A stretch of DNA of 63,867 nt, counting the filler, from Stramenopiles sp. TOSAG23-6 (Eukaryota), in the NCBI GenBank assembly GCA_900128565.1. It is 3 parts of 3 records of this genome, joined end to end, with 100 filler letters (N's around TTAATTAATTAA, not from the genome) between each part and the next. Parts side by side here need not be neighbours in the genome. Positions count along the whole stretch, not along the records: positions 1 to 21,870 come from LT636022.1; positions 21,971 to 43,775 come from LT636023.1; positions 43,876 to 63,867 come from LT636041.1. One strand, given 5' to 3'. This document shows, piece after piece, positions 6,170-63,867 of this stretch (the stretch's first letter is position 1; every line of letters begins with the position of its first letter). Position numbers and translations under genes: made by a program. Below the pieces are notes generated by a model. The model was given only the letters and a program-made list of their open reading frames with translations, was not told where the DNA came from and made no database searches.

Positions 6170-8479
6170 TTATTGTAACATTCGGTTTATCGCTAAATTA
6201 ATATTCCCTCCACTAATTTCTAAGGATTTTCGAGCTTCATTATAGGAGGCTCCAGTAATAACAACAATTTGTTTTACTTTACATTCTCGCTCATGCTTAC
6301 TTGCTGCAATAGCCAATTCTGTATCTGACGGAGAGGTAAGCAAAGTATTTTCAAAACTTTGACAAATAGTTCTACGACTATTTGGTTTTGTACGAATATT
6401 TGTTTTAATTTGCTTCTTTGTTTTAATTCGCTTATTTGGATTGGATGGTGTAGCATCGGAGTTCATGCTAGATGCAGATCTTTTGAGCATCGAAAGAATA
6501 TTATTAGTCTTTTTGATATTATGTTTTNGNTTNCTTTTTTTTTTNCTNGTTTCGGGACATTCGACTTCCATGTTTTGTTAGAACATTCTTTGCTTCTACT
6601 ATAGCCTTTGCTTGTTTTTTAATACACGAAATTACTTCTTTCCCTTTTCTTGCAGTTACTACAGCATCTACAATAGGTGCTGGGTATTCATATAATACTT
6701 CAACCCGTTGTGCATCTCTGCGACAATTTGAAATGATATCATTATTAATACTTTTTGCACTCTTTCTTTTGCGAATTATACAAACACCAAACTTTTTTTG
6801 AACACTTGCCGGCATTTTCGATGGTTCATGAATCCATTCTTTTGTCACTTTTGAAAGTTCTGGTATGTACTTTCGTATAAATGTACCATACTTATCATGA
6901 TCTTTTCCTTGTTTTGTTACGGAGTACACTCTCATGGCATTAATACCAGTAACTCCACTTTGCATCTGTAGTTGAGGATAGTGAATACCAGGCTCATAAT
7001 CAAGAAAACAGCGAGCGAGATGTTTCCCTATTACACGCCAGTCTAACCATAAATTGTATGCAGCAAAAGAAACAACCATGTCATTTGGGAAAATATTTTC
7101 AAAAAGAAAATTCGTTAGGTTTGGAATTGCGTACGAAAAAAGAAACTTTAAAAAAAGAAAAAAAAAAAATTGTAAAATTAAAAAAACGTACATTGCTCGC
7201 ATTCGAAAATTTAACCACCCATGACGTGAAAGGCACCTCATACACGCATCAACCATAGGAAATCCAGTAAGTCCTTTTTTCCAAGCAACGAAATATTCTT
7301 CATTATGTTCACCTTTACCACAGCGAACCGTATCATAAATTCTAGACTGAGCATGTATTTAAGAAAATATTTCAAAAAAAATTTGTTAGGTACAAAATTT
7401 CGTACGAAAAAAAAATCGAATTTGAAAAAAAATAAAAACATACATGGTATTCAATATCAGGTTCACTTTCCAGCTTTTGTATGAAATGTGAACGCCACCG
7501 TAAACGAGAATGAAAACTTGCAAGTGATCTTGGCCAGCTGTCTTTAGAAAATGATCTACCTGCTTTTTTCTGTTTACGGACAAGTTTTTGCTTCTTTATT
7601 AATTCATGTACAACTCTTCGATTTGAGATATGTCCAAAAGTGAGATAGGCACTTACTGTATTGTAGAAAAATATTTCAAAATGTTTTTTGTTAGGTACAA
7701 AATTGCGTACGAAAAATAAATTCGATTTTTTTGTAAAAAAAAAAATAAAACATACATCGAGAACAAGAATTCCAAGCCAAGGAAGGCGATGAAATACCAC
7801 GTTGATACCCTTCTCCTCTCCTTGTCAACCAATTTTGAAGTACCTGCAGCGCGAGTGTCTCACCACCAGCTTGGCGTTCGACTCTATCTTCCTTATGGTC
7901 ATTAGAAATTAAACCAAGATCTGCAAGCTGAGCAGAAGACTGGATCCCACACGAAGGAAATCCACGACAAAGTTTAACAAAGTCACACGGACCAGGAGAT
8001 GGGTATTGTGGTTGTTGCATAAACTTATTATATCCTAATGTAAACTTGTCCCTATCCTTCAGCCCACGAGTCACACCATTTTGTGTAACTTCTTTGAAAT
8101 TAATCTTCATTTTTCGACAGAAACGTCGAACTCGTTTATCACGTTCAAAGGATTTTCCATGACCTGTTTCTTCATGAGCAAATACGCTTTTAATTTTCTT
8201 ACATTTGTTAAGATCGGCTAGAATATCAGTCGCTTCACCAATTCGGAAAATAATACATGGTTTGTCTTTCTCGTCGTCGAGCATTCCACGTATCAATTCA
8301 TCAAGTACTGATAGACCTTCGTTACAAAAGTTTATGTGACTACCATGGAGAGTTGGATGTGACAGCTGGTCTGGCTCATACATATAAATGATACAAAATG
8401 GACTACGTGCACGTACAGCGAGTGCTAGTGGTCCATTATCGTGAATTCGTGCATCCTTTTTCAACCAAACTACATTCAT
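6170..8479 (-). CDS. DNA photolyase/cryptochrome family protein, probably with a C-terminal UBA-like domain; exons 8479-7756, 7655-7444, 7352-7192, 7077-~6170
   Basis: Motifs VVWLKKDARIHDN, SCSRLSAYLTFG, WKKGLTGFPMVDACMR, WLNFRMRAMVVSF and FLDYEPGIH are contiguous after removing 3 inserts. The frame change near 6529-6548 lies in an N-containing homopolymer. Confidence 0.88.
7078..7191 (-). other. Family intron, GT-AT (114 nt, in frame, stop-free)
   Basis: GCA AT|GTACGT...AATGACAT|G GTT restores RMRAMVVSF. Confidence 0.88.
7353..7443 (-). other. Family intron, GT-AT (91 nt)
   Basis: TAC CAT|GTATGT...AAATACAT|GCT restores the frame into WKKGLTGFP. Confidence 0.88.
7656..7755 (-). other. Family intron, GT-AG (100 nt)
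   Basis: CGA T|GTATGT...AATACAG|TA AGT restores SCSRLSAYL. Confidence 0.9.
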
Positions 8480-8727
8480 TTGCTTCTTCAAGTAATGTGT
8501 TTTTGTTATTTGTTGTTGTGTTTCGTCTCAGGATCAGATCGGACTTTGTTTTTTGTTTTTGCGTTGTTTGAATAAAAACTCCGAAAAAGGGCTCAAAATT
8601 ACAGTTACATCTCTCCTTGCAATTGTACAAGTCAACAAGAACTTCATGTAAACAGACTAGCAAACATTCAACTTTAGATTGAAAAATAAAATAATGAGAA
8701 CGTGTTTTCATTGTAAATAATGCAAAA

Positions 8728-11331: not shown

Positions 11332-11360
11332 AAAATGTATTTTGTTTTTATCAGTTTTTT

Positions 11361-12534: not shown

Positions 12535-13873
12535 TTAGAAACATTTAGATCTCACTATTGTTTGACCAACATCATCATATTCTTGTTTTGTAATTTTCAT
12601 ATTTTTAAATGTACTCAATGAAGCTAGCATTGAGCCTCCTATCCAAGCTCCATATTTTCTCTGTGAATCTGAAAATACTTTTGTAGGTATTTCTATACCA
12701 TTTTGGTACGAAATATCTTGTTGCAATCTATTTATATAATTGGGTAACATGGAAGAGCCTCCAGAAATTACGACTGCATCATATAAAGTATTGCGAGTAT
12801 CTTCATCACATCCTAAAATGCTATCCTGTACTAATTGTGCCACTCCAGCTTCTGAGGCAACTGTATTGTGAAAAAATATTTTTTTTTTTTTTTACCGAAA
12901 ATAAAAAAAAAATCGTTAGGTACAAAATTTGGTACAAAATATTTTTTTAAAATTAAAATTTTGAAATTGAAAACGTACATTCTCGACCTAAAATTTCTGG
13001 GTTAAAAAGCGCCTCAGTACAAGTATATCTAGAAGCAGGATCAATTTGAATGATCTCACCATCGGGTAATTCATAATCAACACCATATCCTCCATCTTTT
13101 AGCTCATTTTGCAAATGTAGAGAAACAGCACAGGTAGCTTCTTTAATTTTTTGAACAATTGACATTTGCGATCTAGAAAATTTTCGACCACGCGAAGAAA
13201 GCATTTTCTGTAAATGTTTATCAATTTCGAGGCCAGCAACTTTATTTTTTTGCGATGCATAGCGTAGACCATATCCTTCGAAGACGGGTAGGGTTGTTGT
13301 CGCACCACCGCCAGCCTCTACAGCTAACCCATTAGTTCTCCCAGTTGAAAATAGAGAAAGTACAGGCTGTGGTGCCACATAAAATCCATTCACTTTAATT
13401 TTTTCAAACATAATTCTACACATATATTCTCTATTCTTGTTATTATTTTGACAAGAATCTGTCAGTAAAACTGGAAGATTATCCACCTCAGGATCAACGT
13501 CCATTGCCTCATACAGTGCCCAATCCCATATTTGTTCAATTGATTCTCTTTTCCCCTCTTTTGAAGACATTTCTCCATTGACAATTGGATAAGTTAAAGA
13601 CATTTTGTTTCTACGGGATAAAGCTGCTTCACCAACAGCAAAACCTTTTTCACTGATTCGAGCAGATACGTCATTTATCCGTCGTTTTTTCTGTTTTCCC
13701 AAAGTTTTTTTTCTAGGTTTGTCGGAATTCGTGTCATCATTACTACCAAGACCTACTGCTGGTTGACCAACTACCGTACGGAATACTGACTGTGGTTGAT
13801 CTTCTCCCGAATAACCTACTTTAGTAGAGAAACTACCAGCATCTATAACGATGGTTTGTTTTACGCTCTTCAT
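12535..13873 (-). CDS. Actin-related protein; exons 13873-12979, 12860-12535
   Basis: IVIDAGSFSTKVGYSGED, YELPDG, VVISGGSSMLP and RKYGAWIGGSMLASLSTF...KCF. Confidence 0.92.
12861..12978 (-). other. Family intron, GT-AG (118 nt)
   Basis: GAA T|GTACGT...GTACCTAAC...AATACAG|TT GCC joins the two actin-like ORFs in frame. Confidence 0.9.
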
Positions 13874-14075
13874 TGAATTTGACTTGAAAAAAACAGTGTG
13901 AAAGATCTTGAGGTCTTGGAGAAGAGAAATTTCTTGTAACGTTTTTTTAAGGTACCGGGTAACTTCTTTTTATTCCGGATAATATTTATAATTATTCTGT
14001 CCCCTTAACCACTTGAACACATTTTTTTTTCAATTTTTAATTTATTATTTTTTTGAAACTTTGCTCAAAATTCCG

Positions 14076-16428
14076 TCAAAATTCCTGAAATGTAAAATAA
14101 TTGGTATGCTCTTTGAATCCATAATCAAAAGGACTATAATTGTAAAGACTTTGCATTTCATTTATGTCTATCCCACAAGTTTGCAATGACTTTTCTAGTT
14201 GCTCTATATAATGAAGGTTATCAATCCTTGTTAATTTTCGTTTCAATTTCGAATTTAATGTATCAAATTTTTTACTTTGTCTGGAGTGAAAGTTAACAGA
14301 GTCCTTGTACCATTTCTGTGTGTATGTAATATATAACATTGGCCTGATTACATTACTTTTGTTTTCACCTCCCCCATGTATTTTGGAAAAATATTATTTT
14401 TTTTCGGTAAAAATTTGTTAGGTACAAAATTTCGTATGAAAAAAAAAANGTNAAAAATTCAATTTTGAAAACGTACATGAGTTAATTTCATATCAAAAAA
14501 TATTGCGCCACCTGCATTAAGTTGAGGTGAAAGAATATATTTTGAATCTTCCCTTTTATTTCTATGTGAATTTATATGAAACCTTGTCGGGCCATGTTCT
14601 TGTTTTATATCTATAAGTGGCCAAAATGAAATTATGTATTTTGGAAAAATATTTCAAAAAAAATCGTTAGGTACAAAATTGCGTACGAAAAAAAAACGAA
14701 TTTGAAAAAAAATTAAAACATACATACCATGTGACTTTTGAGTTTTGCCATCCGAAAACAACGGCCCAGTATCAGCATAAAATGTAAACAATATATCAAA
14801 ATGAAAAATAAAATATGTATTCATATGGAAGATGAAAACATCATATATTTTCTATAGATTTTGTAATACAAAAAGGGATTGAAAGTATTCCTTTACAATA
14901 AGTAAAAAAAATGAATATTTCATACGAAAATTCATACCTAACAAAATAAATAAAGTAAAACATACATGGATTATGAAAAAATATTTCAAAAAAAATCTAA
15001 AAAAAATCGTTAGGTACAAAATTTCGTACGAAAAAAAAAAGACGAATTTGAAAAAAAATAAAACATACATGAGAATGCTGACTTTTTGTCTTTGCTAATG
15101 ATGTCACGGATGAGAGTATACCTATTTCAAAATCATCATTTCCAAGTATTGAATTTAATAAATAATTCACTACTTTATTATCAACCAGCCCCGGATCATC
15201 AAATGTATCGTGAAAAAATATTTTATTTTTATTTTTTTGTTAGGTACAAAATTTCGTACGAAAAAAAAAACATCAAAATTGAAAAAAAATAAAACATACA
15301 TGGTTTTTGTAAAGGTAGATGAACGAGATAACGACCCTCAGAGCTAATCTTTCCCCTAGGGGAATTGTACTTGTCAATTTTCGTTTTCGATTCGTCTAAA
15401 TATTTCTTGAATTCAATTTTTTGAGCTTTTTGAATGTCTCTCAATAAGGATCCATTTATCACGTTTTCTATTGCAACAACACCACATGTATCAAGTATTC
15501 GAATTGCATGCCCAAGTATACGTAATGTTTCGATACTCTCTTTGTACATCGATCGAATTGAACTTGGTATATAAACAGTTATTTTTTCTGTTGTACTACA
15601 CCAGTTTTTGAGTTTTTCGTCTATACTGTTATATTTTAAACGCCAATCAATATACTTTCCACTAAATGTCCAATCGAGAGGCTTAATAATGATACCATTG
15701 TCTTTCGCTCTTTGAATAAGTCTAGATAAATGTTGTTCACTTTGAACTTCTATAGTTCTATCAAAACCACAATTCAAGGCAAGAACTTTTTGGAATGTTG
15801 TAATTGCAGCTGAAAGAAAATAGGTTCTTTCATCCTCTTTTCCTAACCAAATGAGACGCATGTATTGTGAAAAATATTTTTCTTGTAAAATTTGTTAGGT
15901 ACAAAATTCACTACGAAAAAAAACTTCATACAAAAAAAAAAATAAAACATACATTTGCGTAATCGCAATGTCATACAAATTAGCCACATTGTATTTTTCA
16001 CGAGCAACATCAATGAATAGTTGAAGCGCAAGTTGACTCTTTTCTTTGTCAGAGTAGTGTTGATTAGATAAGTCAATTGCTTTACTTCGTAATGCTTTTG
16101 AAGTTAAACATTTGTATGGTTCCATCGCCCACGCCTTTACGACTTGACGTTGCTGTACTGTATCAGATATACCAAACTCAGATAAAGCTGCACCGGATTG
16201 AGATTCCTCCAAAATAGCAGAAAAAACTTCACCTTCAATATCTTCGTTCAATATTAATTTCGAACGCTCGGAACGCACGTTGTAATTATCAACGTCTCCA
16301 AGCAAATTATTCAACCAAACTACTATTTCAGTAGAACTCCAGCTTGACTGTGCTTTCTGATTTTTAACACATTGGGCATATAATACAACTACTAATGATA
16401 GATGAAGAGTAAATGTAAAAGACAACAT
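14076..16428 (-). CDS. PhyH-type Fe(II)/2-oxoglutarate dioxygenase with signal peptide and SAM-like N-terminal region; exons 16428-15953, 15859-15300, 15202-15069, 14776-14724, 14633-14477, 14375-14076
   Basis: After removing the inserts: QHSH-ADTGPLF (HxD), FWPLIDIKQEHGPTRF...SH, AGGAIFFDMKLTH-GGGENKS...RPMLYITY. All exon phases are compatible. Confidence 0.85.
14376..14476 (-). other. Family intron, GT-AT (101 nt)
   Basis: ACT CAT|GTACGT...AAATACAT|GGG restores the HGGGEN distal-His motif. Confidence 0.88.
14634..14723 (-). other. Family intron, GT-AT (90 nt)
   Basis: GGT AT|GTATGT...AAATACAT|A ATT; frame restored. Confidence 0.85.
14777..14965 (-). other. Second, abutting GT-AT intron segment containing an inverted family core
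   Basis: Starts GTATGTTTT directly after the preceding element and ends TTTTAT|GCT GAT, as the HxD motif requires. Confidence 0.65.
14966..15068 (-). other. Family intron, GT-AT (103 nt)
   Basis: TCT CAT|GTATGT...GTACCTAAC...ATAATCCAT|. Confidence 0.8.
15203..15299 (-). other. Family intron, GT-AT (97 nt)
   Basis: CCA T|GTATGT...GATACAT|TT GAT gives KPFDDP. Confidence 0.85.
15860..15952 (-). other. Family intron, GT-AT (93 nt)
   Basis: CAA AT|GTATGT...AATACAT|G CGT joins ORFs 15895-16449 and 15229-15861. Confidence 0.85.
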
Positions 16429-16808
16429 GATGGAACTTGAAAAATACACACTAGTACGATATTAGCTAGTACCCAATATCTGCACACAAAAAAAAAATCT
16501 AACAAGAACGACGAAATCTCCGAAAAAATGGAAAAAATGTCCGATGAGTGTTTTTTTTGCTCTCGTTAGGGTTAGGGTTGCCTTTGATGTTTTTTTAAGA
16601 AGCAAAGAAGGCCTGACAGGCTGACACAAGTGGATAATAGCGCGATAATAGCCCACAATGCATCGAATGTAGTTTTTGTTACTGGACAACAAAAATAGTG
16701 ACAGTTCATCACAAAAGAAATTTGAAAAACACGAATTTTCTGATTAAACTTAAATAGGAGATAAAACTGTTTTTTTTTTTATTTTCTTGAATAATATTAC
16801 ATTTTGCA

Positions 16809-17570: not shown

Positions 17571-17890
17571 TTCTATACTTGTTTATATTACTATTCAATA
17601 TCGATGTGGGTTTCTGGTATCACCCAATTTTTAATCGTTTACTGTAGGTTGCTTGCCCAATTATTAATAAATAGTAGGGAATTTAAGCAAGAAGAACTTG
17701 GCCAAAAACCAGAATGTTCTGTGATTGTGAAGATCCGTTTTACGTTTTACACGAAATAAAAAAAAAAATTGCAATGAATTTTTTTTGATGTTGATTGATG
17801 TTTCAAATGTTTGAATTGAAGAAGAGTTCTAAATTCTAATTCTTCCTCCTCCTCGAGGCTATCATATTTAGAGACTGTCAATTATACAAC

Positions 17891-18989
17891 ATGACCCCAA
17901 TTGTCCAAGTGAAAGCTGGTCTTATGGACCCTGCGTATTTCTTAGGTCGCCGTGAACTAGTCCAATGGGTTAATGCTGAGATTAACACAAATTATCAGAA
18001 AGTGGAAGAGACTGCTTCAGGTGCAGCTGTAGTCCAGCTCTTAGACAAATGTTTCCCAAAAAAGGTTCCTATGCATAAAGTCAACTGGGCTGCTAAAGCA
18101 GATTACGAATATATTCAGAACTACAAAATTATCCAAAAGCTTTTCAACAAATTTAAGGTTGAAAAGCACGTTGATGTCAACAAACTTATTCGTGGAAAGT
18201 ATCAGGATAATCTTGAATGGTTACAGTGGATGAAAGCATTTTTTGAAGCAAACTATAACGAAGCTGAAGAGTACGACGCAGTAGCACGCCGCGCCAAAGG
18301 GAAAGGTGGCTCAAAAGTTAAAACAAATTCAGGTAAGCCTCTAGCTCGTGCACAACGTAAATTGGCAGCTACTCCAGCTCCCGGTGCTGCTGCTCGAAAA
18401 AACAAAAGTCCTGCTAAAAAAGTTCGAGAAGAGTCTCCTTTGAAAGCTGCTTCGTTGAAAGAAAATAATGTAACTTCTCATGTTGGTGCACCAAGACCCC
18501 CGGCTTCAGCATCATCTGAAGCATCAGCGGCATTGAAAGAAAAATGCAAAAATTTGAAAAAAACAAACGAAAAACTCACAACGAAGAATACTTCTCTAAC
18601 TCAGTCAAATGCCGAATTAAAACTAATGGTTGATGGACTCGAGAAGGAACGCGATTTTTACTTTGCAAAACTTCGAGAAGTGGAAGTAATGTTACAAGAC
18701 GTGTACGTTATCATTTCCATTTTTTACCAACATTTTTTTTATAGAAAATTTTGTATGTAACAAAAAAACATTACCAAAAAAAAAATCCTAAACTCTAACT
18801 CTAATTTTTACTAAAAAAAATATTTTTTCATAACTCATGGTGGACGGTAACGACAAAGATATCGAAAAGCCAGATGATGAATCTCAGGTCAAAAAACTTC
18901 TTGATAAGTGTTTTGCTCTTTTATACGCATCCGAAGAAGGCAGCGAGGATTCAACTACAGAACAAGAAACTGGACAAGTTGTTGCGTAG
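17891..18989 (+). CDS. EB1: Microtubule plus-end binding protein EB1 (RP/EB family); exons 17891-18702, 18839-18989
   Basis: CH domain (GRRELVQWVN...GKYQDNLEWLQWMK), EBH motif LEKERDFYFAKLREVE, and LLYASEEG in exon 2. Confidence 0.95.
18703..18838 (+). other. Diverged family intron, GT-AT (136 nt)
   Basis: GAC GT|GTACGT...ATATTTTTTCATAACTCAT|G GTG restores the frame; the next two AGs downstream are out of frame. Confidence 0.75.
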
Positions 18990-19054
18990 TTTTAAGTACA
19001 AAAAATAGTACGAAATCGTTGCGTAGTTTTAAGTACAAAAAATAGTACGAAATC
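18981..19054 (+). repeat. 37-bp perfect tandem duplication spanning the EB1 stop codon
   Basis: gttgcgtagttttaagtacaaaaaatagtacgaaatc occurs twice in tandem. Confidence 0.9.
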
Positions 19055-19325
19055 TCACTATACGTACAACACTGCGTAGTCGTCTAATTACTACTACAAC
19101 TATATATTAATATATAGCTATATGGTCTAGTACTCAAAAACGTTTCTGATATGATATAGATGTTATAACAAAGATAGGAGAGCAAGGCTAAACAATAATA
19201 AATGAAACATTTTTACAACAAAAATAAAAAGTGTTTCATCTCAAATTTATTTTGTTCAAGTTATTTACATTTTAAATTATTTGATGTTTTTACATTAATT
19301 TAAAAATCATGCGCATTCAGTTAAA

Positions 19326-20136: not shown

Positions 20137-21785
20137 ATGCTACCCAAGTTGAGTATTTCACTTCCAGAAACTGAGAGTACGCCGTCTCGTAAGTCTTATA
20201 AACCCCTTTCTCCTCTTTCAACAAAGCGTACGTTCAGCGGCGTCGGATCACCATTATCTCGTCGTCCAAGTAAGAAAGTGCTTGAAACACCAAATCATTC
20301 TTTTGTAGATATAAAATTACTTGAACGTATCTTTTTAGACTTGGATCGCGATGGAGATGGTTTAATATCTCGTGATGAGTTTAGGGAAATCTGCTCTAAT
20401 ACAGATTATTTAAATCTCAGCCCAGAAGAAGTAGAGCGAGTGTTCCGTTGCATGGATCGTTCTGAACGCGGTGTCCTGAATTTTAAGCAGTTCAAAAAGG
20501 CAATTCGTCGAAGGAGGTTTATGTCGAGTATAGTGAGCACATATCACGTCAATTTTTTATTCAAAGTTATGCCAAACTACGACTACACAAAGTCGACAGC
20601 TGTGAACTATAAATCTGGTGACAAGACGTTTCATGGTGATTTTGCTAGTATTCGTAAGAAACTTGACTATTCTTATCATGTAAATTATTGTAAGAAACGT
20701 CAGTTGTGGCAGGATGCGGTAATTAAAAGTGTTGCTTCTCGCGGCGAGAGTCAACCAAATCCTTGGGTTGTTTACACATGTGGTCCAATGGGTGCTGGTA
20801 AAGGCTATGCTCTATCGTGGATGTCAAGATTTGGTTATTTTCCTCTGGAAGACATAGTGCATGTTGATCCAGATCATTTTAAACGCTTGATGCCTGAGTG
20901 GAAAGGATATCTGGAACATGTTTGTTTTCATCATATATTTGAAATTTATTTTTTTTCGTACGAAATTTTGTACCTAACGAATTTTTTTCACTAAAAAAAA
21001 TATTTCGAAATATTTTTTCACAGTATAGGATAATGAAACAGCTGGAACTCACTGTCACTTAGAATCTGCATATATGCAAGAGATTGCACAAGAAGTCGGT
21101 TTACAAGACTCGGTAAATATGTGGATTGATGGTAGTCTTCATGATGTACGTTTTCATTTGAATTTCAAATTTTTTTCATACGAAATTTTGTACCTAACGA
21201 TTTTTTTTTTGAAATATTTTCCCAAAATACACGGTTTATGGTTCTCTCAGGTATTTACCACATTACGTCTACGATTTCCTCAATATCGAATTGCAATTTT
21301 TTATGTATATTGTAGTGAACAAGAAGTTCGAAGACGCATGTATGTTTATATGAATTTCTAATTTAATATTTTTTCATACGAAATTTTGTACCTAACGAAT
21401 TTTTTTTTGAAATATTTTTTCACAATACATCGCTAAACGAGCTGAAGAAACTGGGAGAGTCATTCCTGAGAGTATGATTCAAAATTCTCTAGATTCACCA
21501 ATCAAAAGTTTGCGTTTACTTACACCTAAATGTGATTTTGTTGCTCAAATTAATAATGAAGGTCCAACTCCTATTCTTGAAGCTTTTGAAACTATTGACA
21601 GATCAGGTCGTTGGCAACTCATAAGTAATCAATTTTCAACTGATGCAACGCACCCTCTTGATTTCCCAGAAATTTTATCGCCTCTTTTTGTTTCAAAATT
21701 ATATCCTGTACAATGTAAAATATCAAATAATACTGCATTTGGGCTAGTAGTACCAGATGAAGAAAATTGTAAATTGAGCAATTAT
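20137..21785 (+). CDS. EF-hand + zeta-toxin-like P-loop kinase protein, 3' end lost in gap; exons 20137-20919, 21029-21145, 21233-21339, 21431-21785
   Basis: EF-hand DRDGDGLISRDE; P-loop GPMGAGKG; HVDPDHFK; WIDGSL; RAEETGRVIP. Confidence 0.85.
20920..21028 (+). other. Family intron, GT-AG (109 nt)
   Basis: GAA CAT|GTTTGT...CACAGTATAG|GAT restores the frame. Confidence 0.88.
21146..21232 (+). other. Family intron, GT-AC (87 nt, in frame, stop-free)
   Basis: CAT GAT|GTACGT...CCCAAAATACAC|GGT gives DGSLHDGLWF. Confidence 0.78.
21340..21430 (+). other. Family intron, GT-AT (91 nt)
   Basis: CGC AT|GTATGT...AATACAT|C GCT gives VRRRIAKRAEETGR. Confidence 0.88.
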
Positions 21786-21814
21786 GTATGTTTTATTCAT
21801 CGTACATTTCAAAC

Positions 21815-21849
<35 letters not shown>

Positions 21850-21870
21850 AATATTTTTATAAAAAATTTT
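21786..21870 (+). other. 5' part of a family intron truncated by the gap
   Basis: TAT|GTATGTTTT followed by poly-T up to the Ns. Confidence 0.7.
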
Positions 21871-21970
21871 NNNNNNNNNNNNNNNNNNNNNNNNNNNNNN
21901 NNNNNNNNNNNNNNTTAATTAATTAANNNNNNNNNNNNNNNNNNNNNNNNNNNNNNNNNNNNNNNNNNNN
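21871..21970. other. Assembly gap with artificial TTAATTAATTAA linker
   Basis: N-runs flank a six-frame stop linker. Confidence 0.95.
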
Positions 21971-22648
21971 GAATTATACCAAAGAATGCTCAAAGATGGT
22001 AACAGCAATTCAAAAATTGCTTTAATTTTTTTTTCTTGAAAACAAAATAAAAAAATTTTAATTTCAGATTTTTTTTTGTCGAAAGAAATGATGATTAACT
22101 CTGATCGATCAATGTTCTTCTATGTATATTTGGATTCCATACCATTTTTTCTATATAAAAAAAAATGAGAATTTCCATTTCTGTTTTTATTATATTCAAA
22201 ATTCCAGAATTTTTCAAAAGTAGACAAAAATGCTACAAATCTTTGAAACTTAATAATTTTTCACTTGTAAATATTTTCTGAATTCGTCTTTAATTTTGAC
22301 ATCTCTAACGTGTTTTGTATATAACAACAGTTTTGTATGCTTGTCATGTCTAGATTTTCTTATATTGTTGTATTATATTTCAAAAAAAAAAAATTGTTAG
22401 GTACAAAATTTCGTACCAAAAAAAAATTAAATTAATTTTTTTTTAATTTTATGTTACAAAAAACTGTTTTTTTTCATTAGGTTACACATTTCGTATGAAA
22501 AAAAATATAATGAAATATGAAAAAAATACCTTTAAATGCACGTTTTTTAAACGTAAAAAAAAAAGAAGATGAGTTTAAACTAGATGGCACACACATGTCT
22601 CCGCAATATTTGACTGTATTGACTAGTAGAGGATTTGAGAAAATGAAT

Positions 22649-26760: not shown

Positions 26761-29700
26761 TTATACTATATTTTCGTCGTCTAATGAATCGCCAGTATCC
26801 CCAGCTAATTCTGAAAATGCAGAATCAAAATCAGCTTCAAAACTGTCTTCTTCATTTTTTTCTTCAGCTTTGTTCGTTTCGTCAACATTAGATTCTTCAT
26901 ATTCGACAACTTCGATATCTTCTTGAGCATCATCATCATCAAGTGGGTTTTCAAACGCACTAAAGTCAGCCCACCTGCCATCACCTGCATCATCATCACT
27001 TCCGCCACCATCACCAGATATATATGTATTATCTGCCATCCCGTATTGTTGCATAAGAGAAGATATATGACCTTCGTCTTCATCAGATGAATCATCAGAA
27101 GAGTCCATATCATGATCACCTCCATTAAAAGCATACCAATCAGAACCACCATTTGCACTGTCACTGTTTCCAGCTCCTACAGTACTAAACATGCCATCTT
27201 TAATGTTTAGCGAATCACCACCAGACACCATACCAGCAAAATCTGGTCTATTATTATTATCAAGACTTGGAGAATTTGGAAGACCACCAAAACTATCGCC
27301 TGCCATTCCGAACATTTGGGATTCAGTATTAAATATTTCATCACTTTGAGCAAGAGCATTAATTGCTTTAAGATCCCCACTCGCGAGCCAACGTTGCCAT
27401 GCTTCATGCACTGAAACGAAATCATAAATATGGATACATTGAATCTTTTCTCTTTCTGCCTTTTTGACAGAATCTTTTGGATCTACTTCTTCCAACTTTT
27501 GTTCTTTTAATTGATCTTCAGCCATTTCGACGGCGGATTCAATACAATTTGCCATAATATGACAATATCCATAGTTGCCTTGAGCTTTTGTAGGCATCTT
27601 CTTAGGGGTACTGATTTTTTCGTCAGATGTCGAAATATCTGTTTCCTTATTCATTTTTTCATTCGAAACTACAGATATATTTTCTTTGTCATCATAACAA
27701 GTTAGCAACCGATCAATTAGTCCATAACCACTAGCATTAGATTCACTATCCGTTTTCCCATCCTCTACAGACGCAAAAAGAAGTTTTTGTATAAAAGACA
27801 TATTATTCTGAATGACTGCCTCGAGTATAAAGACAACATATCGATGAAGCATATTGCACCAGGGAAAATCGAAAAATAAATCAAAACAAATCTGGACAAT
27901 TCCGTTTCTACCAAGATTAGCCAGTAATAAATCTGTATTAATAAAACCTAATGTGATTACTAAAGACATCAATTGAGTTAATAAAAGTCGACTGGGCCCT
28001 AAACGATACATATATTGATGAAAATATTTCAAAAATTAAATTTTTTTGTTAGGTATGGAATGTANTAATTAGGTACAAAATTTTCTATGAAAAAAATAAA
28101 CTCAAAAATAAGAATGAAAACGAACTCTTTGACTCCATAAGTTGACATCATTGTTCCACATGAAGTCTTCAATACCTTGCATAAATTTTCATGCTGTGAT
28201 AAAATTGACAAAACTACTGGAGGCATTGGAGACGCTGTAGAATACTTTGGAAGTTGTCCCAATTCCTATATTGTGAAAAATATTTTTTTTTTTTTTTACC
28301 GAAAATAAAAAAAAATGTTAGGTATGAAATTTCGTACAAAAACAAATATGTAAAAATTTAAATTTTGAAAACGTACAAGTGCTTCCGTTGCATTCATACC
28401 AGAAACATGAATTCTTTCCCCAGGGGAGGTAGCAGATAATTCAATGTCATTTTGTTCCTGTATATATCTCTCTTCTCGATTCAAGTGCTCACGTTCAATT
28501 CCTTGTGCTATATTCTCTAATAAACATACCAAAACTTTAAGTGCTGATTCTTGTGCTCCTCGACTACGTCGTTTCATTTCTACATGTATTGTGATTTTTT
28601 TTTTTTAGTTTCAAAAAAAAAAAAATCGTTAGGTACGAAATTTCGTATAAAAACAAATGTAGGTAAAAAATTGTATTGTAACAAACGTACATCTACAGAG
28701 TCATCTAATAAAACTGAAGTCATCTGACAAACAATTTCCACGAGTCTTTCACAAGAGTCTTTTTCAAGGAGGATATCATATACTGTGAAAAAATATTTTT
28801 TTTTTTTTTTTACTGAAAAAAAAAAAAATCGTTAGGTATGAAATTTTTTTTCGAGAAAAATGTGGGTAAAAATTTAATTTTGAAAAACGCACATTCACAC
28901 GAACTGTGGGTGTGACATGAGTGTGTACAGCAATACTTTGCAACACTTCTGTTGCATTTTGCTGCATATCAATCGGACAATCCGGAGAAATACAATCCAA
29001 CAAAACTTTAATAATAGCTGCATCACCGCCAAAAGCTTTGGGTTGACAGTAACTTTCTTGAGCTTCAGCAGTGGCTGTGCTATTCAAATCTGTAGCTAAG
29101 TCTTCTAGTATGCCATCGACGTTATCTGTATCACCTTCATTATTTTCTGTATCATTTGTCTCGCTATCTTTACCATCTGTATCAATGGAAGTCCTTCTAA
29201 AAGACGAAGTAAACGAGTCTAACTCGTTATTCAATTCCATTTTTTCTTCTGCTACATTAAGAGGTAAAGCCAACATAATTCGCAAAATTTCGGCCACTGA
29301 ACAATCACCCATATGTCGAACAAATTTTGGTAACATATTTGAAGCAACATCTGTATCCAGAAAAAGTAACACTTCCTGAGGTTTTCGCTGTGAAATCATT
29401 TGTAACACTTTACAAATATAACCAGATTGCCACGTTGGAAGTGGCGCTTTTTGCTCTAGAATGTTGAAAATGCTCAACAGAAGATTGTTATTATCGAAAT
29501 CAACAAGAGCATCAATAATTGCTGTGACATCGCAACAAATAATCTCACACGCCAAGTATGGGTACTTAAGTCGCTCAACCTCGGTTGCTGTATCACTTGG
29601 AGGATCCACTATAAAACTTATAAGGCTTTGTAAAGTCTCACCTTTAGTGAGATATTCGATTAAATTGCTATTGAGTCCTTTTACCTCTTGTAAAAGTTCC

Positions 29701-41500: not shown

Positions 41501-43465
41501 GCAAAGATTACATGTGTGCCCAATATGCCTTGACAAATGCGCAACATTTGAGAATGTCATCTCAATTAGATACAGCAAGTAGTGAAAGGTTTTTACTACA
41601 TTTTGCGGCGTGTACTCGAATGGAATCTGCAAAATTACTGATGACAAGAGGCGAAGAACGAAATGCACTTGTACAGATTGAGCCTTCTGAATTTAATAAA
41701 AATGGGCGTTTTATAACACATACAGCTGTAGATAGTACTGATCCGAAAACAATTCGTGCAGCACAAGAAGAAAGTTTACAACGAGCACGAACTTTATTAT
41801 TAGCGACCGAATGGTTACAGGAATTGAAACTAAAGCAAGGTAGTGAATTGGTTGAACGATTTAATGCGGTAGTGGAAGAGTGTCCTCGCTGGGAGGAAGG
41901 TCATTTTGCTCTTGGCAGATATTATGATTATGTTCTAACCGAGTTGGAGAAACGAAAAAAAGATCCACAATCAATATCTACTGTTAGAGAATATGTAATT
42001 CATGTGATTCATAATTATGGCACGTCCTTGCAATTTGGTAGTGACAAAATCTTCCGATCAATGCCGAGATTATTGACATTATGGTTCAAATATGGATTGT
42101 TATTTTATAAACAAATTTCAATGTCTCAACGGACAAACGCAAACTGTAGTGTGAACGGACGCAGAAAATCCCAAGTAAACAACGAAGACGATGAAACACT
42201 CTGTAAATTAATGATGGCATTAGTCGCAAAACTTCCTTCCTATCAATGGCTTACAGCATTACCACAGTTAATTTCGCGGATTAGTCATGTTTGTTTTATT
42301 TTTTTTTCAAATTCGTTTTTTTTCGTACGAAATTTTGTACCTAACAAATTTAAGTTTTGTTTTTTTGAAATATTTTTCCAAAATACATCCGAATGACAAA
42401 GTTTGGAATATTTTACGTGAAATTATTGCGAAAATTTTGTATACTTACACTGGGCAAGCTCTATGGAGTGTTATGGGTTTAATGCAATCTCAAGGTGTCT
42501 TACGAAAAAAACGTGGAACTGACATTGTGAAAAGGGCAATATCTTATGTATGTTTTCATCAGAAAAAAAAATCATTTTTTTCGCATGAGAATTCTATGAC
42601 CAAACGAATGTTTTTTCTAAAATATATATATATTTTTTCACAATACATGGTGATAAAGAACGAAATATAACGAGTCATCAATTAAGAACTGCTAAAATTC
42701 TTTTTGAAGAACTCATAAAATTTGCTTTAAATCGAAATGGACGGCGGGGTAAAATGCAATTACAATGGAAGCCTTCTGTTTTACAGTCACCGGCGTTGAG
42801 GAAACAAGGACTAGTCGTTCCAACACAACAGACGCTTACTGTTACATTACCTGCTGCATCACCTTTCCGGGATATTCCGGGAGATGATCCAGATTTGGTG
42901 TTTCCACCCACCGAACAAACAGTGATTTATGCACTTGGTAAAGAAGCCGATGTAATGGCATCGAAAGAACGACCAAAGAAAATGAATTTGGTTGGTAGTG
43001 ATGGAAAACTGAGGCATTTCTTATTAAAGTCAGAAAAAAAAGGCGATTTGCGAAAAGATTCTCGACTGATGGAGTTTAATACAGTAGTAAATCGATTATT
43101 ACAGCGCAATCCTGAGACAAGAAGGCGTAAGATTCAACTTCGTACATATGCTGTTGTTTGTCTCGATGAAACATGTGGGATTATGGAATGGGTGTACAAT
43201 ACTGCTGGTCTCCGGATATTGATACGGGATTCATATGTGGCCGCAGGTCACCAGAAGCCTATGATCATTACAACAAATATACGTTCACAATATGAAAAAA
43301 TACAAAGAGAAAATAAGAATAATATAACTAAAATGGCCGAAGCATATGAAAATGATATTTTACCACATTTTCCCGCGATTCTTCACCAATGGTTTCTTGC
43401 ATCATCTTCTGATCCAACGAATTGGTTCGATCGTAGAGTTGCGTTTGCTCGCTCTGTCGCAGCGT
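32527..43465 (+). CDS. ATR: PIKK kinase ATR (3' end missing); exons 32527-34374, 34468-35166, 35272-35592, 35714-36533, 36653-39993, 40087-42288, 42389-42547, 42649-43465
   Basis: HEAT/UME region, GQLGAIDP, LQKIYASLEESDGLSGV, FAT domain SMPRLLTLW, QLISRISHP, kinase SKERPKK...GSDG...DLRKDSRLMEF...LRTYAV...CGIMEWV. Confidence 0.93.
34303..34347 (+). repeat. 9-bp coding tandem repeat (TKN)x5
   Basis: accaaaaat units. Confidence 0.85.
34375..34467 (+). other. Family intron, GT-AT (93 nt, in frame, stop-free)
   Basis: GAC AAT|GTATGT...CCAAAATACAT|GTT; full family consensus. Confidence 0.83.
35167..35271 (+). other. Family intron, GT-AT (105 nt, in frame, stop-free)
   Basis: CTT GAT|GTATTT...CATACAT|GCC. 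Confidence 0.82.
35593..35713 (+). other. Family intron, GT-AT (121 nt)
   Basis: GAA CAT|GTATGT...TTCAT|GAT joins two ATR ORFs in frame. Confidence 0.83.
36534..36652 (+). other. Family intron, GT-AT (119 nt)
   Basis: GTA T|GTATGT...GTACCTAAC...GATTCAT|GT joins two ATR ORFs in frame. Confidence 0.8.
39994..40086 (+). other. Family intron, GT-AT (93 nt)
   Basis: ATC TAT|GTATGT...AAATACAT|GCA gives LQKIYASLEESDG, matching the ATR LQKLYAAMHEPDG-type motif. Confidence 0.92.
42289..42388 (+). other. Family intron, GT-AT (100 nt)
   Basis: AGT CAT|GTTTGT...AAATACAT|CCG gives QLISRISHPNDKVW. Confidence 0.92.
42548..42648 (+). other. Family intron, GT-AT (101 nt)
   Basis: TCT TAT|GTATGT...AATACAT|GGT; in frame with the kinase ORF. 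Confidence 0.85.
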
Positions 43466-43555
43466 GTATGTTTTATATGAATTTCTAATTTAATATTTTT
43501 TTCATACGAAATTTCGTACCTAACGATTTTTTTTGAAATATTTTTCAAAATACAA
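43466..43555 (+). other. Family intron with uncertain 3' end (AA at the acceptor position)
   Basis: GCG T|GTATGT...GTACCTAAC...AAAATACAA; the downstream sequence does not continue the ATR kinase. Confidence 0.55.
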
Positions 43556-43710
43556 GCTCGATTAAAACAAAGAAAGAAAAAAAAAAAAAAAAATGTAGAT
43601 AAAAATAAAATTGAAAAAAAATCTGAAAGTCAAATTTATTTTACAGATAAGAATCGTTGCCAAAAATATGTTGAGAGATGTAAATCAACCTATTTTACCT
43701 TTGTTCACGC

Positions 43711-43775
43711 GTAGGTTTTCAAAATTGAATTTTGAATTTTTTTTTTTGGTAGAAAATTTTGTACCTAAGAAAAAA
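43711..43775 (+). other. 5' part of a family element truncated by the gap
   Basis: GTAGGTTTTC...GAAAATTTTGTACCTAA followed by Ns. Confidence 0.6.
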
Positions 43776-43875
43776 NNNNNNNNNNNNNNNNNNNNNNNNN
43801 NNNNNNNNNNNNNNNNNNNTTAATTAATTAANNNNNNNNNNNNNNNNNNNNNNNNNNNNNNNNNNNNNNNNNNNN
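43776..43875. other. Assembly gap with artificial TTAATTAATTAA linker
   Basis: N-runs flank a six-frame stop linker. Confidence 0.95.
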
Positions 43876-43927
43876 GTACCTAACAAATTTAAGTTTTTTT
43901 TTTTTGAAATATTTTTCCAAAATACAT
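43876..43927 (+). other. 3' part of a family intron ending in AT
   Basis: GTACCTAAC...CCAAAATACAT|GAA AGA opens the RNB exon in frame. Confidence 0.78.
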
Positions 43928-44872
43928 GAAAGAGATCCAATGCTTGATTCGTGTTTACAAGTTCTCGCAACAGAACCCATGCAAGAAGCGCAGTATTTTA
44001 GATGTGGTTCTGAAATGGATCCAGCTTCTCGTCGTCATTATGCATTAAATATTCCATATTACACTCATTTTACATCGCCAATTCGTCGGTATGCGGATGT
44101 ATGTTTTATTTTTTTTCAATTTCGAATTTTTTTTCGTACTAAATTTTGTACCTAACGGGGTTTTTTTTTCAAATATTTTTCCAAAATACATATAATGGTT
44201 CATCGTGCACTAAGTCTCATAATAGATGTTGGTTCTAATAATTCTGAATTAAATAATTTGTTAAAAATTAATCAAGAAAGTGGTCATAATGATGAATCTA
44301 CGAATGAAAAGATGATTGCATTGGCGTATCAGCATATTGGGCGTTCTATTGATGATATTGAAAAGGTTGCTGAACACTGCAATGAAAAAAAAACTGCTTC
44401 AAAATCAGCTCAAGATGAAAGTGATAAAGTATTTTTTGCCGTATGGCTGCGTAATAAATACCGTAGTGGTAATCCTGTGGAGACGTTGGGGATTGTTCTG
44501 AGTATGGGTGAAAAGTATTTCCGTATTTTTATGCCACAATTTGGATATGATCAACAAGTGACTTGGCAAGATATTCAGCCAGATGCTGAATTGATTGGAT
44601 TTACAGGTTCTGAGCATCAAAGATGTCTCATTCGACTACTGGGTGATATTTCAAGTAGTAGTGTTGATAATGAAGAAAACAAAACAAGAAACGAAAAACA
44701 AGACAACACAAAAGAAAAACCAGAGATTGTTAGTAGTAATAACACTATTGATTTACAAGTTCTTCGGCGTTTAAAGGTTTGTCTTACCGCAAACGTAGTT
44801 AAAACTAGACTTAAAATAAGTATATTGATACGTGGAGTATGGGATGAATCAAAAGATGCATATTATTCTTGA
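43928..44872 (+). CDS. DIS3L2: DIS3-like exoribonuclease 2, C-terminal part (5' end lost in gap); exons 43928-44098, 44192-44872
   Basis: [34 protein letters not shown] and [14 protein letters not shown]. Confidence 0.85.
44099..44191 (+). other. Family intron, GT-AT (93 nt)
   Basis: GCG GAT|GTATGT...AAATACAT|ATA ATG restores the RNB signature [13 protein letters not shown]. Confidence 0.93.
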
Positions 44873-44928: not shown

Positions 44929-46033
44929 TCATTTTTTTTTACTTCCTTTGTTTTCTTTCTCGGTACTTTCTATTTGAGTTTCATTTTTTTTTCCTCCTTT
45001 CTCGCCACTTTTTTCTTTTGAATTCATAAGCATTGTAGCACCTAAAGCACCAAGTTGACCAAAGAATTCCGTATTATTCCAAAATTGAAGTCCAAGATTT
45101 TCCGCAAAGATTTTATCGCAATCACTATGGTCGTCATCTCTTCCCGCAGCATCACCAACATAAAAACTCTTTTCTATACAAGGATATCGCTTTGTTTGTA
45201 AGTATTTTGGTAATAATAAACTGAGCAGTTTCCATAATGGGTGATTGCCACGTGTCAAACAATCAGTACAATTATCAGGAACTTTTTTATTTTTGATTTC
45301 ATGGGAACTCCATTTCCGAAATGCATCTTTGCTAGTTGCAACAAGAAAAAGAATTGGACATGGTAATTTTAAATGATTAAAAATAGATTCCATGCGAAAC
45401 ACTTTTTCAGATATAGATTTTTCAATTCTATCAATGCGTTTTTTTCGTAAAGAACCTTTCATGTATTTTGGAAAAATATTTCAAAAAAAATTCGTTAGGT
45501 ACGAAATTTCGTACAAAACAAAATTCGAAATTGAAAAAAAATAAAACATACAACTCGTCCGGGTGTTTACCACGGCCTGCAATATTAGCACCATTACTAA
45601 TAATCACAATTTGGTAACCAGCAGATGCTACAGTGTGTAAACTTTCACTTACACCAGGCATTAAATCACGGGGTATAGATAGTGGTGGAAGAACCTTGCT
45701 CCATGAATTGCCCTTGCAGATGCAACCATCAAAATCAAACGCAGCTATCGGTAAAACATTCTCATGTAACTTTGAAGAATGTGTCAACTGATCTATTGAA
45801 CCTTCAAACCAACGTACGAGGCACGTTGACTTTGTTTTCTTTCCAGAGGATAGTTTCACACAGTGTGCCGACCAATGCTCTGGTAGTTTACAACAATTGA
45901 ACGTTGGTTTACCGACACCTACTACTCCACTTTTTCGTATAGACGCAGACTTCATGAAATCGAATGCATTCTTCGGTTTAGAGGCAGACTTTTCTTCCAG
46001 GCGCATTCTTTTTGTGGGTCTATTCTCTGACAT
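44929..46033 (-). CDS. PNKP-type DNA 3'-phosphatase (HAD); exons 46033-45552, 45460-44929
   Basis: IAAFDFDGCI, GYQIVIISN and FYVGDAAGRDDDHSDCDKIFAENLGLQF. Confidence 0.88.
45461..45551 (-). other. Family intron, GT-AT (91 nt)
   Basis: GAG TT|GTATGT...AAATACAT|G AAA; the exon ends in TT, so the boundary cannot slide to AT-AC. Confidence 0.88.
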
Positions 46034-62800: not shown

Positions 62801-63867
62801 AATCATTTACAAACAGCTTTGCTAAATACTCAAGGATTTGACCCAGATCTTAAATATATATCAATTATGTATCAGTTCAACTTGATGTATCGACTTACTA
62901 TCGTCGTGGATCTTCTACTTGATCAATTGAAACCAGACATAAATAAGTACGCCATTGAGAATTATGCTAATACGATTCATACACGGTTAGAAGAAGGTGT
63001 ATATGAAGTGGAACAGATGGAACTTAAAACTGCAAATAACTACAATGCTCTCAAAGACGATATTTATGCTGTTCATGGTGCATTTTATACTCTATTTAAT
63101 GAGTATTTAATTGGCAACGGTGTGAACACCGTAGGGAAAATGCGAGAAACAAATGATGCATTCGTACCAATATCTTCAGAGGAGTCATTCAAATTACATG
63201 ACGTTGCTCGAAAGCGAATCAACGAATTTGACCAAATGAAATCAAATAGCAAGTATACACTTGTTGAGTACAACAAAATGGCAAATTTATTATTTGAAGG
63301 TTCTTTCTACATGTATAATGCTCTCTGGACAAGAGAAGCAACACTAGAACTTCTTGAATTAAATTTGAAAAAGTCTTACTTCATCGAATCATTGCTTCGT
63401 GGAATTGTTTCGGTTTTACCTGACGTAAAACTGCTATCAGGACGGTATGATTTTTGGATTCCTTTAAATGAAGCAAATCGTAATTGGCGTCTTGCTAGAG
63501 GTGAAGTTGATGGGAAGTTTCCTTCAAATTATGTAGACGGATTTGGGTCCCTTATGGGAATTTCCATGCTCAATTACTTTAAATTTTTCGAAAAAATAAT
63601 GCCTACAATAATGAATATGTACAACAGACAGAGTACAAATCAAAGTGATATAAATTATGCCACAATAAGGGGTGGGAGGAGCGGAAAATTATACCGGTCA
63701 AATTGGTGGTTCGTCGTCAAAGGACATCTTGATGCATCAAAAGAATACACGTATGTTTTATTTTTTTTTGTATAATTTTTTTTTTTCGTACGAAATTTTG
63801 TACCTAACAAAATTTTTTAGTTTTTTTTTTCAAATATTTTTCCAAAATACATGTATCTGGGAAAGGC
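50873..63867 (+). CDS. Giant type-II membrane protein with coiled coil and many alpha-helical repeats (runs off the window); exon 50873-63750, next exon from 63853
   Basis: >4290 codons open; single TM (LFLAITIGAIAVSAIITGLYV); recurring A/L-rich helical units; Cys-rich insert near 62280-62535. Confidence 0.85.
63751..63852 (+). other. Family intron, GT-AT (102 nt)
   Basis: TAC AC|GTATGT...CGTACGAAATTTTGTACCTAAC...CCAAAATACAT|G TAT CTG. Confidence 0.8.

Follow-up and report, generated by a model that had tools for sequence, protein, structure and literature searches.

The window described here is a stretch of 63,867 nucleotides (nt) joined from three records of Stramenopiles sp. TOSAG23-6 (GCA_900128565.1). 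Its genes are interrupted by short, mutually similar inserts, which begin with GT and in most cases end with AT. The family is real, and its members are probably removed by splicing at these GT and AT ends. Pfam matches identify, among the host genes, a photolyase, an actin-related protein, EB1, an EF-hand/zeta-domain protein, a SAPS-domain protein, an MFS transporter, ATR, DIS3L2 and PNKP; the ATR and DIS3L2 genes are both incomplete within the window. Neither a probable dioxygenase gene nor a frame of 4321 amino acids (aa) has a Pfam match. A protein-atlas search with the dioxygenase exon gave leads all below 0.9, one of them PhyH (weak), and its HxD motif is what we take to mark it as a probable dioxygenase. 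The host is probably a member of MAST-3, a marine heterotrophic stramenopile, judging from the label of the nearest record: the protein closest to the actin-related gene is a EukProt record labelled GSMAST32, the aligned part of which is identical except for two gaps and two residues. Nine top ATR relatives were looked up, and both of those with an organism name are oomycetes.

The copies were collected by a core-motif search and a profile scan for donors and acceptors, which gave 31 complete units. Two of these, segment B (14777-14965) and the copy 43466-43556, were set aside. The remaining 29 clean copies are 84-136 nt long and reside in 11 genes. All start with GT, and they end with AT (23), AG (5) or AC (1); this independent recount gives the same numbers as an earlier reading made from the DNA alone (the sequence-only reading). 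Two further copies run into N gaps (from 21786; 43710-43927), and one degenerate copy lies near 22400. Chance would give 1.03 occurrences of the motif TACCTAAC in the window; the actual number is 30, which none of 100 shuffles attains. This branch-like motif lies on the strand of the host gene in each of the clean inserts. The claim that the inserts are always oriented with their genes is therefore true of all 29, the exception being an inverted core inside segment B.

Pairwise identity among the 29 copies has a median of 0.66 and a maximum of 0.91, their hosts being 11 unrelated genes. Many similar introns at unrelated gene positions are what characterizes introners, that is, self-copying introns, and the introner label of the sequence-only reading is sustained by this similarity, by a short terminal inverted repeat and by the duplication of AT (see below). 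The junctions are in phases 0, 1 and 2 in 16, 5 and 8 cases. No intron outside the family was found in the window, in a search that was not exhaustive for such introns.

When the copy 43466-43556 is added to the clean set, the last base of the 30 family copies is T in 23, G in 6 and C in 1. The GT-AG and GT-AT copies have a common body. The AG-ended copies are scattered among the AT-ended ones and resemble one another no more closely than five copies drawn at random (fraction 0.38), so that a separate AG-ended subfamily is rejected. This scatter suggests that the change to AG would have happened repeatedly, after insertion.

Two other properties of the family may be mentioned. The N gaps 21871-21970 and 43776-43875 share an identical 12-base linker and both lie in or adjoin family copies; the repeat appears to break the assembly at these places. 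The variants of the core (e.g. 20957-20978) and of the donor (C or T at +4) are largely of the CG to TG or CA kind, as decay of methylated CpG would give.

Removed lengths and RNA contigs

Removal of the inserts opens long frames in nine gene models and also in EB1, the ATR tail and the 4321-aa gene, in agreement with the restoration of frame proposed earlier. The first versions of the ATR and RNB models read through an insert still in place and a gap; all 11 gene models are free of stops up to the last junction.

The removed lengths were compared with homologues covering 8 residues on either side of a junction. Homologues fix the length of the AT-ended inserts at 7078, 7353, 21340, 39994, 42289 and 44099 and of the AC-ended insert at 21146. 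At 44099, the end of the upstream exon corresponds to D708 of the DIS3L2 chain 8e27_A. The five protein motifs cited in the sequence-only reading are all present; homologues bear out four of them (7078, 39994, 42289, 44099), and the fifth, at 14376, has RNA on one side. None of 150 ATR homologues spans the four N-terminal ATR junctions, and searches for homologues of the SAPS gene and, in viral contigs, of PNKP found none.

A nearby canonical AG could in principle make the AT ends only apparent. Within 30 nt, 7 of the 24 non-AG junctions have no frame-keeping GT/GC-AG alternative at all, and just one (28584) has an alternative of the same length. Five have an in-frame AG downstream of the family donor, and homologues reject it in all three testable cases. 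A nearby AG is thus rejected as a general explanation by the homologue lengths and by the scarcity of frame-keeping alternatives.

Contigs from four seawater metatranscriptome runs (X1-X4) were aligned on 14453-21870, which holds 9 complete units; the alignment contains 3445 pieces and 13 joints beyond those listed. Two stretches are matched by a 478-nt contig of the poly(A) run X1, namely 14476-14633 with 4 other letters and 15068-15198 with none, and 52 letters separate the two in the contig. The leftmost joints predicted for exact removal are 14476, 14633 and 15068 and the predicted gap is 52, and all agree. In the bin between them the depth is 0.94, which corresponds to 52 letters at this contig's depth. 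Hence 14634-14723 and 14777-15068 are absent from it, segment B being excised as well, as had been proposed, and 14376-14476 is broken at its donor side. In the EB1 gene, an X1 contig begins at 18838 and an X4 contig from another study ends at 18701, each covering one side of the junction. These breaks are those of the GT-AT prediction; a cut 2 bases earlier predicts 18699/18836 and the next AG predicts 18702/18859. The three contigs thus break exactly at four predicted AT junctions, and the joined ones would be spliced transcripts. The junctions at 15203, 15860, 20920, 21146 and 21340 are bridged by no listed contig, which proves nothing at such depth.

Loose ends at 14965 and 21430 in independent public runs indicate that other copies end at the same AT. 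A systematic base-call or assembly error (G to T), the alternative raised in the sequence-only reading, is rejected on this ground.

There might also be no RNA splicing at all: the inserts would then be assembly or amplification artefacts, inactivating insertions in one cell, or segments removed at the DNA level, and the contigs would come from intron-less alleles. The window does contain N gaps and one chimeric junction, and intron presence can vary between close relatives (10.1101/2022.06.06.494994; this paper, like most of those cited below, is represented by the part of its text that was available). However, the copies are mutually diverged and lie on the gene's strand in single open frames of conserved genes, and the same AT end recurs in the independent runs. 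Furthermore, an intron-less allele is made less likely by the EB1 contigs, which have no other letters in 138 and 91 bases even though no copy is more diverged than the EB1 intron. Such an origin of the pattern is highly improbable.

The homologues and the few RNA contigs available support the exact removal of GT-AT inserts in conserved genes. To this extent the proposal that the organism splices GT-AT introns in essential genes stands, while its word "routinely" depends on three contigs. The copies and related features are collected in the following table.

Family copies and related features of the window, with the basis on which each removed length is known
Feature	Position	Strand	Basis or remark
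GT..AT, photolyase gene, exon end AT	7078..7191	-	length fixed by 79/79 spanning homologues (80 loci)
GT..AT, photolyase gene, exon end AT	7353..7443	-	75/77 homologues; in-frame AG 6 nt downstream thereby rejected
GT..AG, photolyase gene, exon end AT	7656..7755	-	same length in 77/77 spanning homologues
GT..AG, actin-related gene	12861..12978	-	same cut in gene model P0001 (a prediction, not independent)
GT..AT, probable 2OG-Fe dioxygenase gene	14376..14476	-	RNA contig match starts at predicted joint 14476, one side
GT..AT, dioxygenase gene	14634..14723	-	RNA contig leaves window at 14633, as predicted
Segment B: family donor, inverted core, AT end	14777..14965	-	excised jointly with 14966-15068; uncounted
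GT..AT, directly in front of segment B	14966..15068	-	RNA contig resumes at predicted 15068
GT..AT, dioxygenase gene	15203..15299	-	frame only
GT..AT, dioxygenase gene	15860..15952	-	frame only
Diverged GT..AT, EB1 gene, exon end GT (no 2-base slide)	18703..18838	+	RNA contigs, two studies
GT..AG, EF-hand/P-loop (zeta-domain) gene	20920..21028	+	same length in 44/66 homologues (variable loop)
GT..AC, EF-hand/P-loop gene, exon end AT	21146..21232	+	65/66 homologues
GT..AT, EF-hand/P-loop gene	21340..21430	+	65/66 homologues
Incomplete copy, donor running into N gap	21786..21870	+	uncounted
Degenerate copy, two cores, outside any definable gene	22355..22510 (approximate)	-	uncounted
GT..AT, doubled core, SAPS-domain gene, exon end GA	28010..28125	-	frame only
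GT..AG, SAPS gene, exon end TT	28266..28376	-	frame only
GT..AT, SAPS gene	28584..28690	-	sole copy with same-length GT-AG alternative (4 bases on)
GT..AT, SAPS gene	28778..28892	-	frame only
GT..AT, shortest (84 nt), MFS gene	31089..31172	+	frame only; canonical alternative within 30 nt: none
GT..AG, MFS gene	31883..31989	+	cut 2 bases earlier gives in-frame stop codon
GT..AT, ATR gene	34375..34467	+	frame only; 0/150 homologues span
GT..AT, ATR gene	35167..35271	+	frame only; 0/150 homologues span
GT..AT, N inside, ATR gene	35593..35713	+	frame only; 0/150 homologues span
Diverged GT..AT, ATR gene	36534..36652	+	frame only; 0/150 homologues span
GT..AT, ATR gene	39994..40086	+	70/101 spanning homologues; canonical alternative within 30 nt: none
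GT..AT, ATR gene	42289..42388	+	130/133 spanning homologues
Diverged GT..AT without core motif, ATR gene	42548..42648	+	homologue test weak, 37/114
Copy between truncated ATR kinase and DIS3L2 fragment, probable chimera	43466..43556	+	uncounted
Copy interrupted by N gap, AT end	43710..43927	+	uncounted
GT..AT inside RNB motif, DIS3L2	44099..44191	+	2/2 fetched RNB homologues continue gap-free
GT..AT, PNKP-like gene, exon end TT (no 2-base slide)	45461..45551	-	frame
GT..AT, 4321-aa gene, exon end AC (no leftward slide)	63751..63852	+	two frames open, weakly fixed; downstream exon only 15 nt within window

The copy 43466-43556 is probably a mis-join or a recombination between two family copies: the ATR kinase ends here, 175-234 residues before the end of the 8 homologues printed, and a DIS3L2 fragment continues.

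Several observations concern the genes rather than the introns. The public gene model P0001 is short of 16 and 10 residues relative to the open frame 12956-13876 (-), which suggests that a standard pipeline invented introns there. The photolyase-family gene 6519-8479 (-), with three family introns, has a last exon 40-49% identical to bacterial relatives, mostly Bacteroidota in the 80 loci kept from a search that covered prokaryote genomes only; gene transfer is a possible lead. The EF-hand and zeta-toxin-like P-loop protein of 20137-21870 (+) has 67 longer relatives, those with names being mostly algae and protists. A frame of more than 4300 codons at 50810-63867 (+) runs off the window, its end appearing SH3-like by eye. 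Beside the degenerate copy and on the opposite strand, a frame of about 54 codons with a DGxH-like motif (22514-22680, +; limits approximate) is a possible gene remnant. Within the frame 8698-11331, positions 10233-10420 (+) contain an exact internal duplication of about 87 bases.

Signals, flanks and proposed mechanism

The splicing signals of the family resemble those of U2-type introns at all but one position. GT is invariant in the 30 family copies, G is found at +5 in 29, and GTATGT, the yeast-type donor, is exact in 17, so that the donor is of the U2 type. CCTAAC is present in 28 of the 30 copies, 27-55 nt from the 3' end and with a U tract behind it. This arrangement agrees with the U2-type branch site, whose consensus is of the CTRAY type, and with its pyrimidine tract; TACCTAAC is thus presumably the branch site. 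A stands at -2 in all 30 copies. The AG end of U2-type introns, however, is found in only 5 of the 29 clean copies. Rfam has no match in the window, and there is no small nuclear RNA (snRNA) in it.

The flanks and ends of the inserts carry further information. The upstream exon ends with AT in 24 of the 29 clean copies (25 of 31 units), against a fraction of 0.098 in coding DNA (p ~3e-20), and AT is found on both sides of 19 of the 29. The next exon begins with G in 22 of 31 units. The exon-side AT is an addition to the sequence-only reading, as are the chimeric, gap-interrupted and degenerate copies. The ends form a terminal inverted repeat GTAT...ATAC, in which the pairs from +1/-3 to +4/-6 are complementary in 24, 25, 23 and 18 of 30 copies; the pair +5/-7 shows no complementarity, the inverted repeat being very short. 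The family core is an imperfect palindrome. Flanking AT, inverted ends and a palindromic core are, as far as sequence can tell, the anatomy of an insertion that duplicates AT. Where they can be tested, the exon-side bases are ancestral (L at 7656, M at 7078).

These features make it possible to propose how such introns arise and are removed. In a marine stramenopile otherwise poor in introns, an introner family would have spread across the genes. Each copy would bring with it a strong donor GTAYGTTTT, a palindromic core ending in the branch-like TACCTAAC, a U-rich tract and the inverted ends. Insertion would occur at an AT dinucleotide, often AT/G, and would duplicate it, so that the second AT becomes the last two bases of the intron. 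The flanking AT would thus be a target-site duplication made by a DNA transposase. The major (U2-type) spliceosome would then cut out GT...YAT exactly and restore the original message. It would still require A at -2 and no longer G at -1, presumably through a changed second-step factor or U2AF in the host, and some copies would later have changed to AG, several times independently. The donor match, the branch position, the invariant A at -2 and the absence of both excess folding and covariation (see below) favour a U2 spliceosome relaxed at -1. An introner with its own donor and branch, a duplicated AT as acceptor and such a spliceosome is, on balance, the probable explanation.

A partial precedent exists in yeast. 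In the absence of Prp18, CAU and UAU are the most used non-G acceptors, poly(U) helps, a pair between G+1 and U-1 has been proposed, and C or A at -1 is disfavoured (PMC10711555, available part). These HAU acceptors are like those of the family in having a GT donor, CAU or UAU behind a U tract, and the same order of AT, then AC. In yeast, however, they are a minor error product of a mutant, whereas here they are the majority class in conserved genes.

Several points weigh against the mechanism proposed. The flanking AT gives the cut room to move, and for 19 of the 23 AT-ended introns no messenger RNA (mRNA) can tell the assigned cut from one 2 bases earlier; the conserved motifs, said earlier to fix the excised length, do fix the length removed but not the GT-AT label at these sites. 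In seven of the 23 AT-ended introns, splicing would have to pass over an AG situated between the branch and the 3' end. These AGs lie 11-20 nt from the branch, with a second at 50 nt in one intron, and all but one would break the frame; either they are too near the branch, or the conserved 3' motif rather than the first AG marks the end. Segment B has no sense-strand CTAAC and ends with AT, 38 nt past a family-type end, without a recognisable branch site. The RNA support consists of three contigs with a depth of 2.8-4.5, and their joints are deduced from piece ends and depth arithmetic, not being among the printed joints. The 478-nt contig stops 4 bases before the 15203 junction with 7 letters unplaced, and one X3 contig is unspliced across 14718-14870. 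Cyanidioschyzon lacks both Prp18 and Slu7 with no inaccuracy observed (PMC10158995, available part), so that the loss of Prp18 cannot suffice by itself. A single copy lies outside reading frames, where about 8 are expected for even insertion at AT in both orientations (P ~0.003, with rough gene limits). Finally, no transposase or autonomous partner was seen in the window, and the inverted repeat has only ~4-7 bases.

In 14777-15068 two units stand back to back with no exon between them; the inverted core, which is in the second, could base-pair with both the core and the branch motif in the first. Recursive splicing, a rescued dead intron and an amplification fold-back are all possible. Segment B may be excised in a second step after 14966-15068, or with it.

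The 2-base ambiguity raises the question whether the true cut is the earlier one (AT...AC or AT...AT), in which case the introns would mostly be of the known AT-AC type and GT-AT would be a register error. For the 19 sliding copies the mRNA would be identical. But GT is invariant and the AT preceding it is not, the EB1 RNA breaks are those of the GT-AT cut, and the earlier cut creates the stop at 31883. The split codon at 7656 encodes L in 61, I in 15, M in 1 and V in none of 77 homologues, which supports the GT donor; the residue that the earlier cut would give is found in 0 of the 77. The slid donor also differs from ATATCCTT at 3-5 of 8 positions. The GT-AT register is favoured, and the earlier cut deserves almost no credence. 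Helitrons insert between A and T without duplication, and a Helitron-like insertion would give the same sequence at AT sites; it is not favoured, since at 7656, where the intron ends with AG, the exon-side T is ancestral.

The introns might instead be removed by a transformed minor (U12-type) spliceosome, which by nature tolerates more variation at the last base. Blastocystis, also a stramenopile, is presumably akin to MAST-3. It has 253 minor introns (available part of the minor-intron survey), GT-AT is a productive U12 pair (PMC1557818), and Physarum has gained U12 introns en masse with a co-evolved branch site (10.1101/2020.10.12.336362). Furthermore, TACCTAAC resembles the U12 branch TTCCTTRAC. 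The family motif is shorter, however, and lies 27-55 nt from the end with a long U tract after it. Every copy has at least two mismatches from GTATCCTT; against the U12 donor RTATCCTT, taken from the Physarum paper, there are 2-4 at the GT register and 3-5 at the slid AT. The frequent exact GTATGT and the nearly invariant G at +5 also argue for the U2 spliceosome, and the U12 machinery is quite unlikely.

A machine outside the spliceosome, guided by pairing of the ends as proposed for the nonconventional introns of euglenids, would account for ends that can pair (AUGUAU with AUACAU) and for the folding of some copies as long rods. Yet the copies fold no better than their shuffles (median z -1.0, with 3 of 27 below -2), and there is no compensation between the ends, the C at +4 being opposite A in 8 of 10 copies. 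Structure-guided removal with stable end pairing is rejected on these grounds. The invariant GT, the A at -2, the branch-like site and the presence of GT-AG members suit a spliceosome, and a separate machine of any kind is very improbable.

Mode of spread

GT-AT splicing might be as described above while the copies spread through RNA, either by reverse splicing or by AT-microhomology patching of breaks, with AT being the site preference of the altered spliceosome. The uniform sense orientation of the 29 clean copies would be accounted for, and so would the very short inverted repeat and the lack of a visible transposase. The scarcity of copies outside frames is not predicted by a plain DNA transposon and leaves room for spread through RNA; for one orientation the expectation is 4 (P 0.09, rough). 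Family sequence from other loci is abundant in the RNA runs (17 to 1641 contigs per run). On the other side, the family shows what usually marks DNA elements, namely identical last two bases of exon and intron, inverted ends and a palindromic core, and selection alone eliminates antisense exonic copies. Spread through RNA is therefore regarded as unlikely, though less so than the other alternatives.

Two of the listed RNA joints, 14476 to 14634 (X2) and 14478 to 14633 (X3), link a family 3' end to a family 5' end. They would fit tandem copies elsewhere or full-length intron circles, as spread through RNA might leave. Their short sides have 20-24 letters, and they may come from other copies.

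A wider possibility is that YAT has become the standard acceptor of the whole genome. The family-specific 3' motif, in place of the first AG, would then mark the intron end, a changed U2 snRNA would read TACCTAAC, one AT-duplicating introner would have supplied nearly all introns, and the element and the spliceosome would have coevolved. This extension of the proposed mechanism is tentative, with the chances somewhat against it.

Significance and comparison with known systems

Neither the reason for the AG end of introns nor the extent to which a spliceosome can depart from the AG rule is settled. In the known exceptions both ends are altered together, which obscures the cause. The present family departs in its last base only: the donor, the branch-like site and the A at -2 are kept, and AT, AG and AC versions exist side by side. 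The family thus amounts to a natural experiment, with one variable, on how the first intron base contacts the last, and points to a splicing machine with one of its most conserved checks loosened. Specific changes in Prp18, Slu7, Prp8 or U2AF are predicted, which should be readable from the genome. The family also outlines how an AT-duplicating element can turn into an intron that does no harm, and it carries a warning that standard gene callers and introner surveys will mis-model such genomes.

A literature search that covered few subscription papers found no report of a lineage dominated by GT-AT, as the sequence-only reading had supposed, or of such introns in MAST-3; AT ends as a major class, on the other hand, are already known from Fritillaria. 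Elsewhere GT-AT is rare: four species provide 7 cases of U12 type, and a single conserved case is of U2 type (PMC1557818, available part). The accessible text of a diplonemid intron paper does not mention "GT-AT", and that of two MAST-3 genome papers (PMC5778133; 10.64898/2026.04.17.719054) has no word starting with "splic". Metagenome contigs searched with the exact core motif and viral contigs searched with a degenerate one gave no matches. Three loci from a looser three-part pattern were rejected as chance, being mutually overlapping, phage-like and without alignment to the window. These searches gave no DNA of a close relative that might show empty orthologous sites, and distant homologues give continuity of the protein only.

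Introners of Micromonas, Chrysochromulina and Aureococcus are likewise short, non-autonomous exonic repeats that leave the length of the mRNA unchanged (PMC11282704; 10.1101/2022.06.06.494994; PMC12130899), and taking the donor from the element and the acceptor from the duplicated target is an established route (PMC11282704; 10.1101/2022.06.06.494994). In Micromonas IE1, however, the co-opted acceptor is AG (PMC11282704). According to the available part of a 2025 introner survey, only AG and AC were accepted as 3' ends and unverified odd families were discarded (PMC12130899), so that a family like the present one would probably have been missed.

ISL2EU DNA transposons share the 2-base AT target duplication, but their ends begin with GG, their target is A/AT/T and the described families are from animals (PMC4482050, available part). 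Membership of ISL2EU is rejected, as the present ends begin with GT in 30 of 30 copies, A and T do not flank the duplicated AT, and it is mostly G that follows.

The introns of Amoebophrya and of euglenids are also repeated en masse and have non-AG ends, but Amoebophrya has no dominant end pair and, in the parts of the sources available, no U1 was detected (PMC7789003; PMC11282704). In euglenids, end pairing holds the introns, which are excised as circles (PMC11282704), whereas the signals of the family are spliceosome-like. The U12 expansion of Physarum is similar in its mass gain beside a dinucleotide duplication and in its unusual branch site; it differs in its U12 donor, its RT-AG or AT-AC ends and a branch 9-12 nt from the end (10.1101/2020.10.12.336362, available part).

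The closest parallel is found in Fritillaria. There, more introns end with AT than with any other dinucleotide (44% in F. pellucida and 34% in F. borealis), and U2AF has been duplicated (PMC13326754). A YAY triplet precedes the intron and another closes it, both inverted repeats and target duplications occur, and the U2 spliceosome carries out the removal (PMC13326754; PMC11282704). AT acceptors with duplicated flanks are thus already known, while the literature searched contained no set dominated by GT-AT in which donor and branch are intact. In F. borealis both ends are diverse (AG/AC 18%, AG/AT 16%, canonical 5%), the main classes starting with AG (PMC13326754, available part). The contrast in donors rests on this species, since the AT-ended introns of F. 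pellucida may include many GT/AT. The present family has instead an invariant strong GT, a nearly invariant branch-like site, a single family that makes up all the introns found, a 2-base duplication and a stramenopile host. It parallels Fritillaria at the 3' end, but all its other signals are canonical and uniform.

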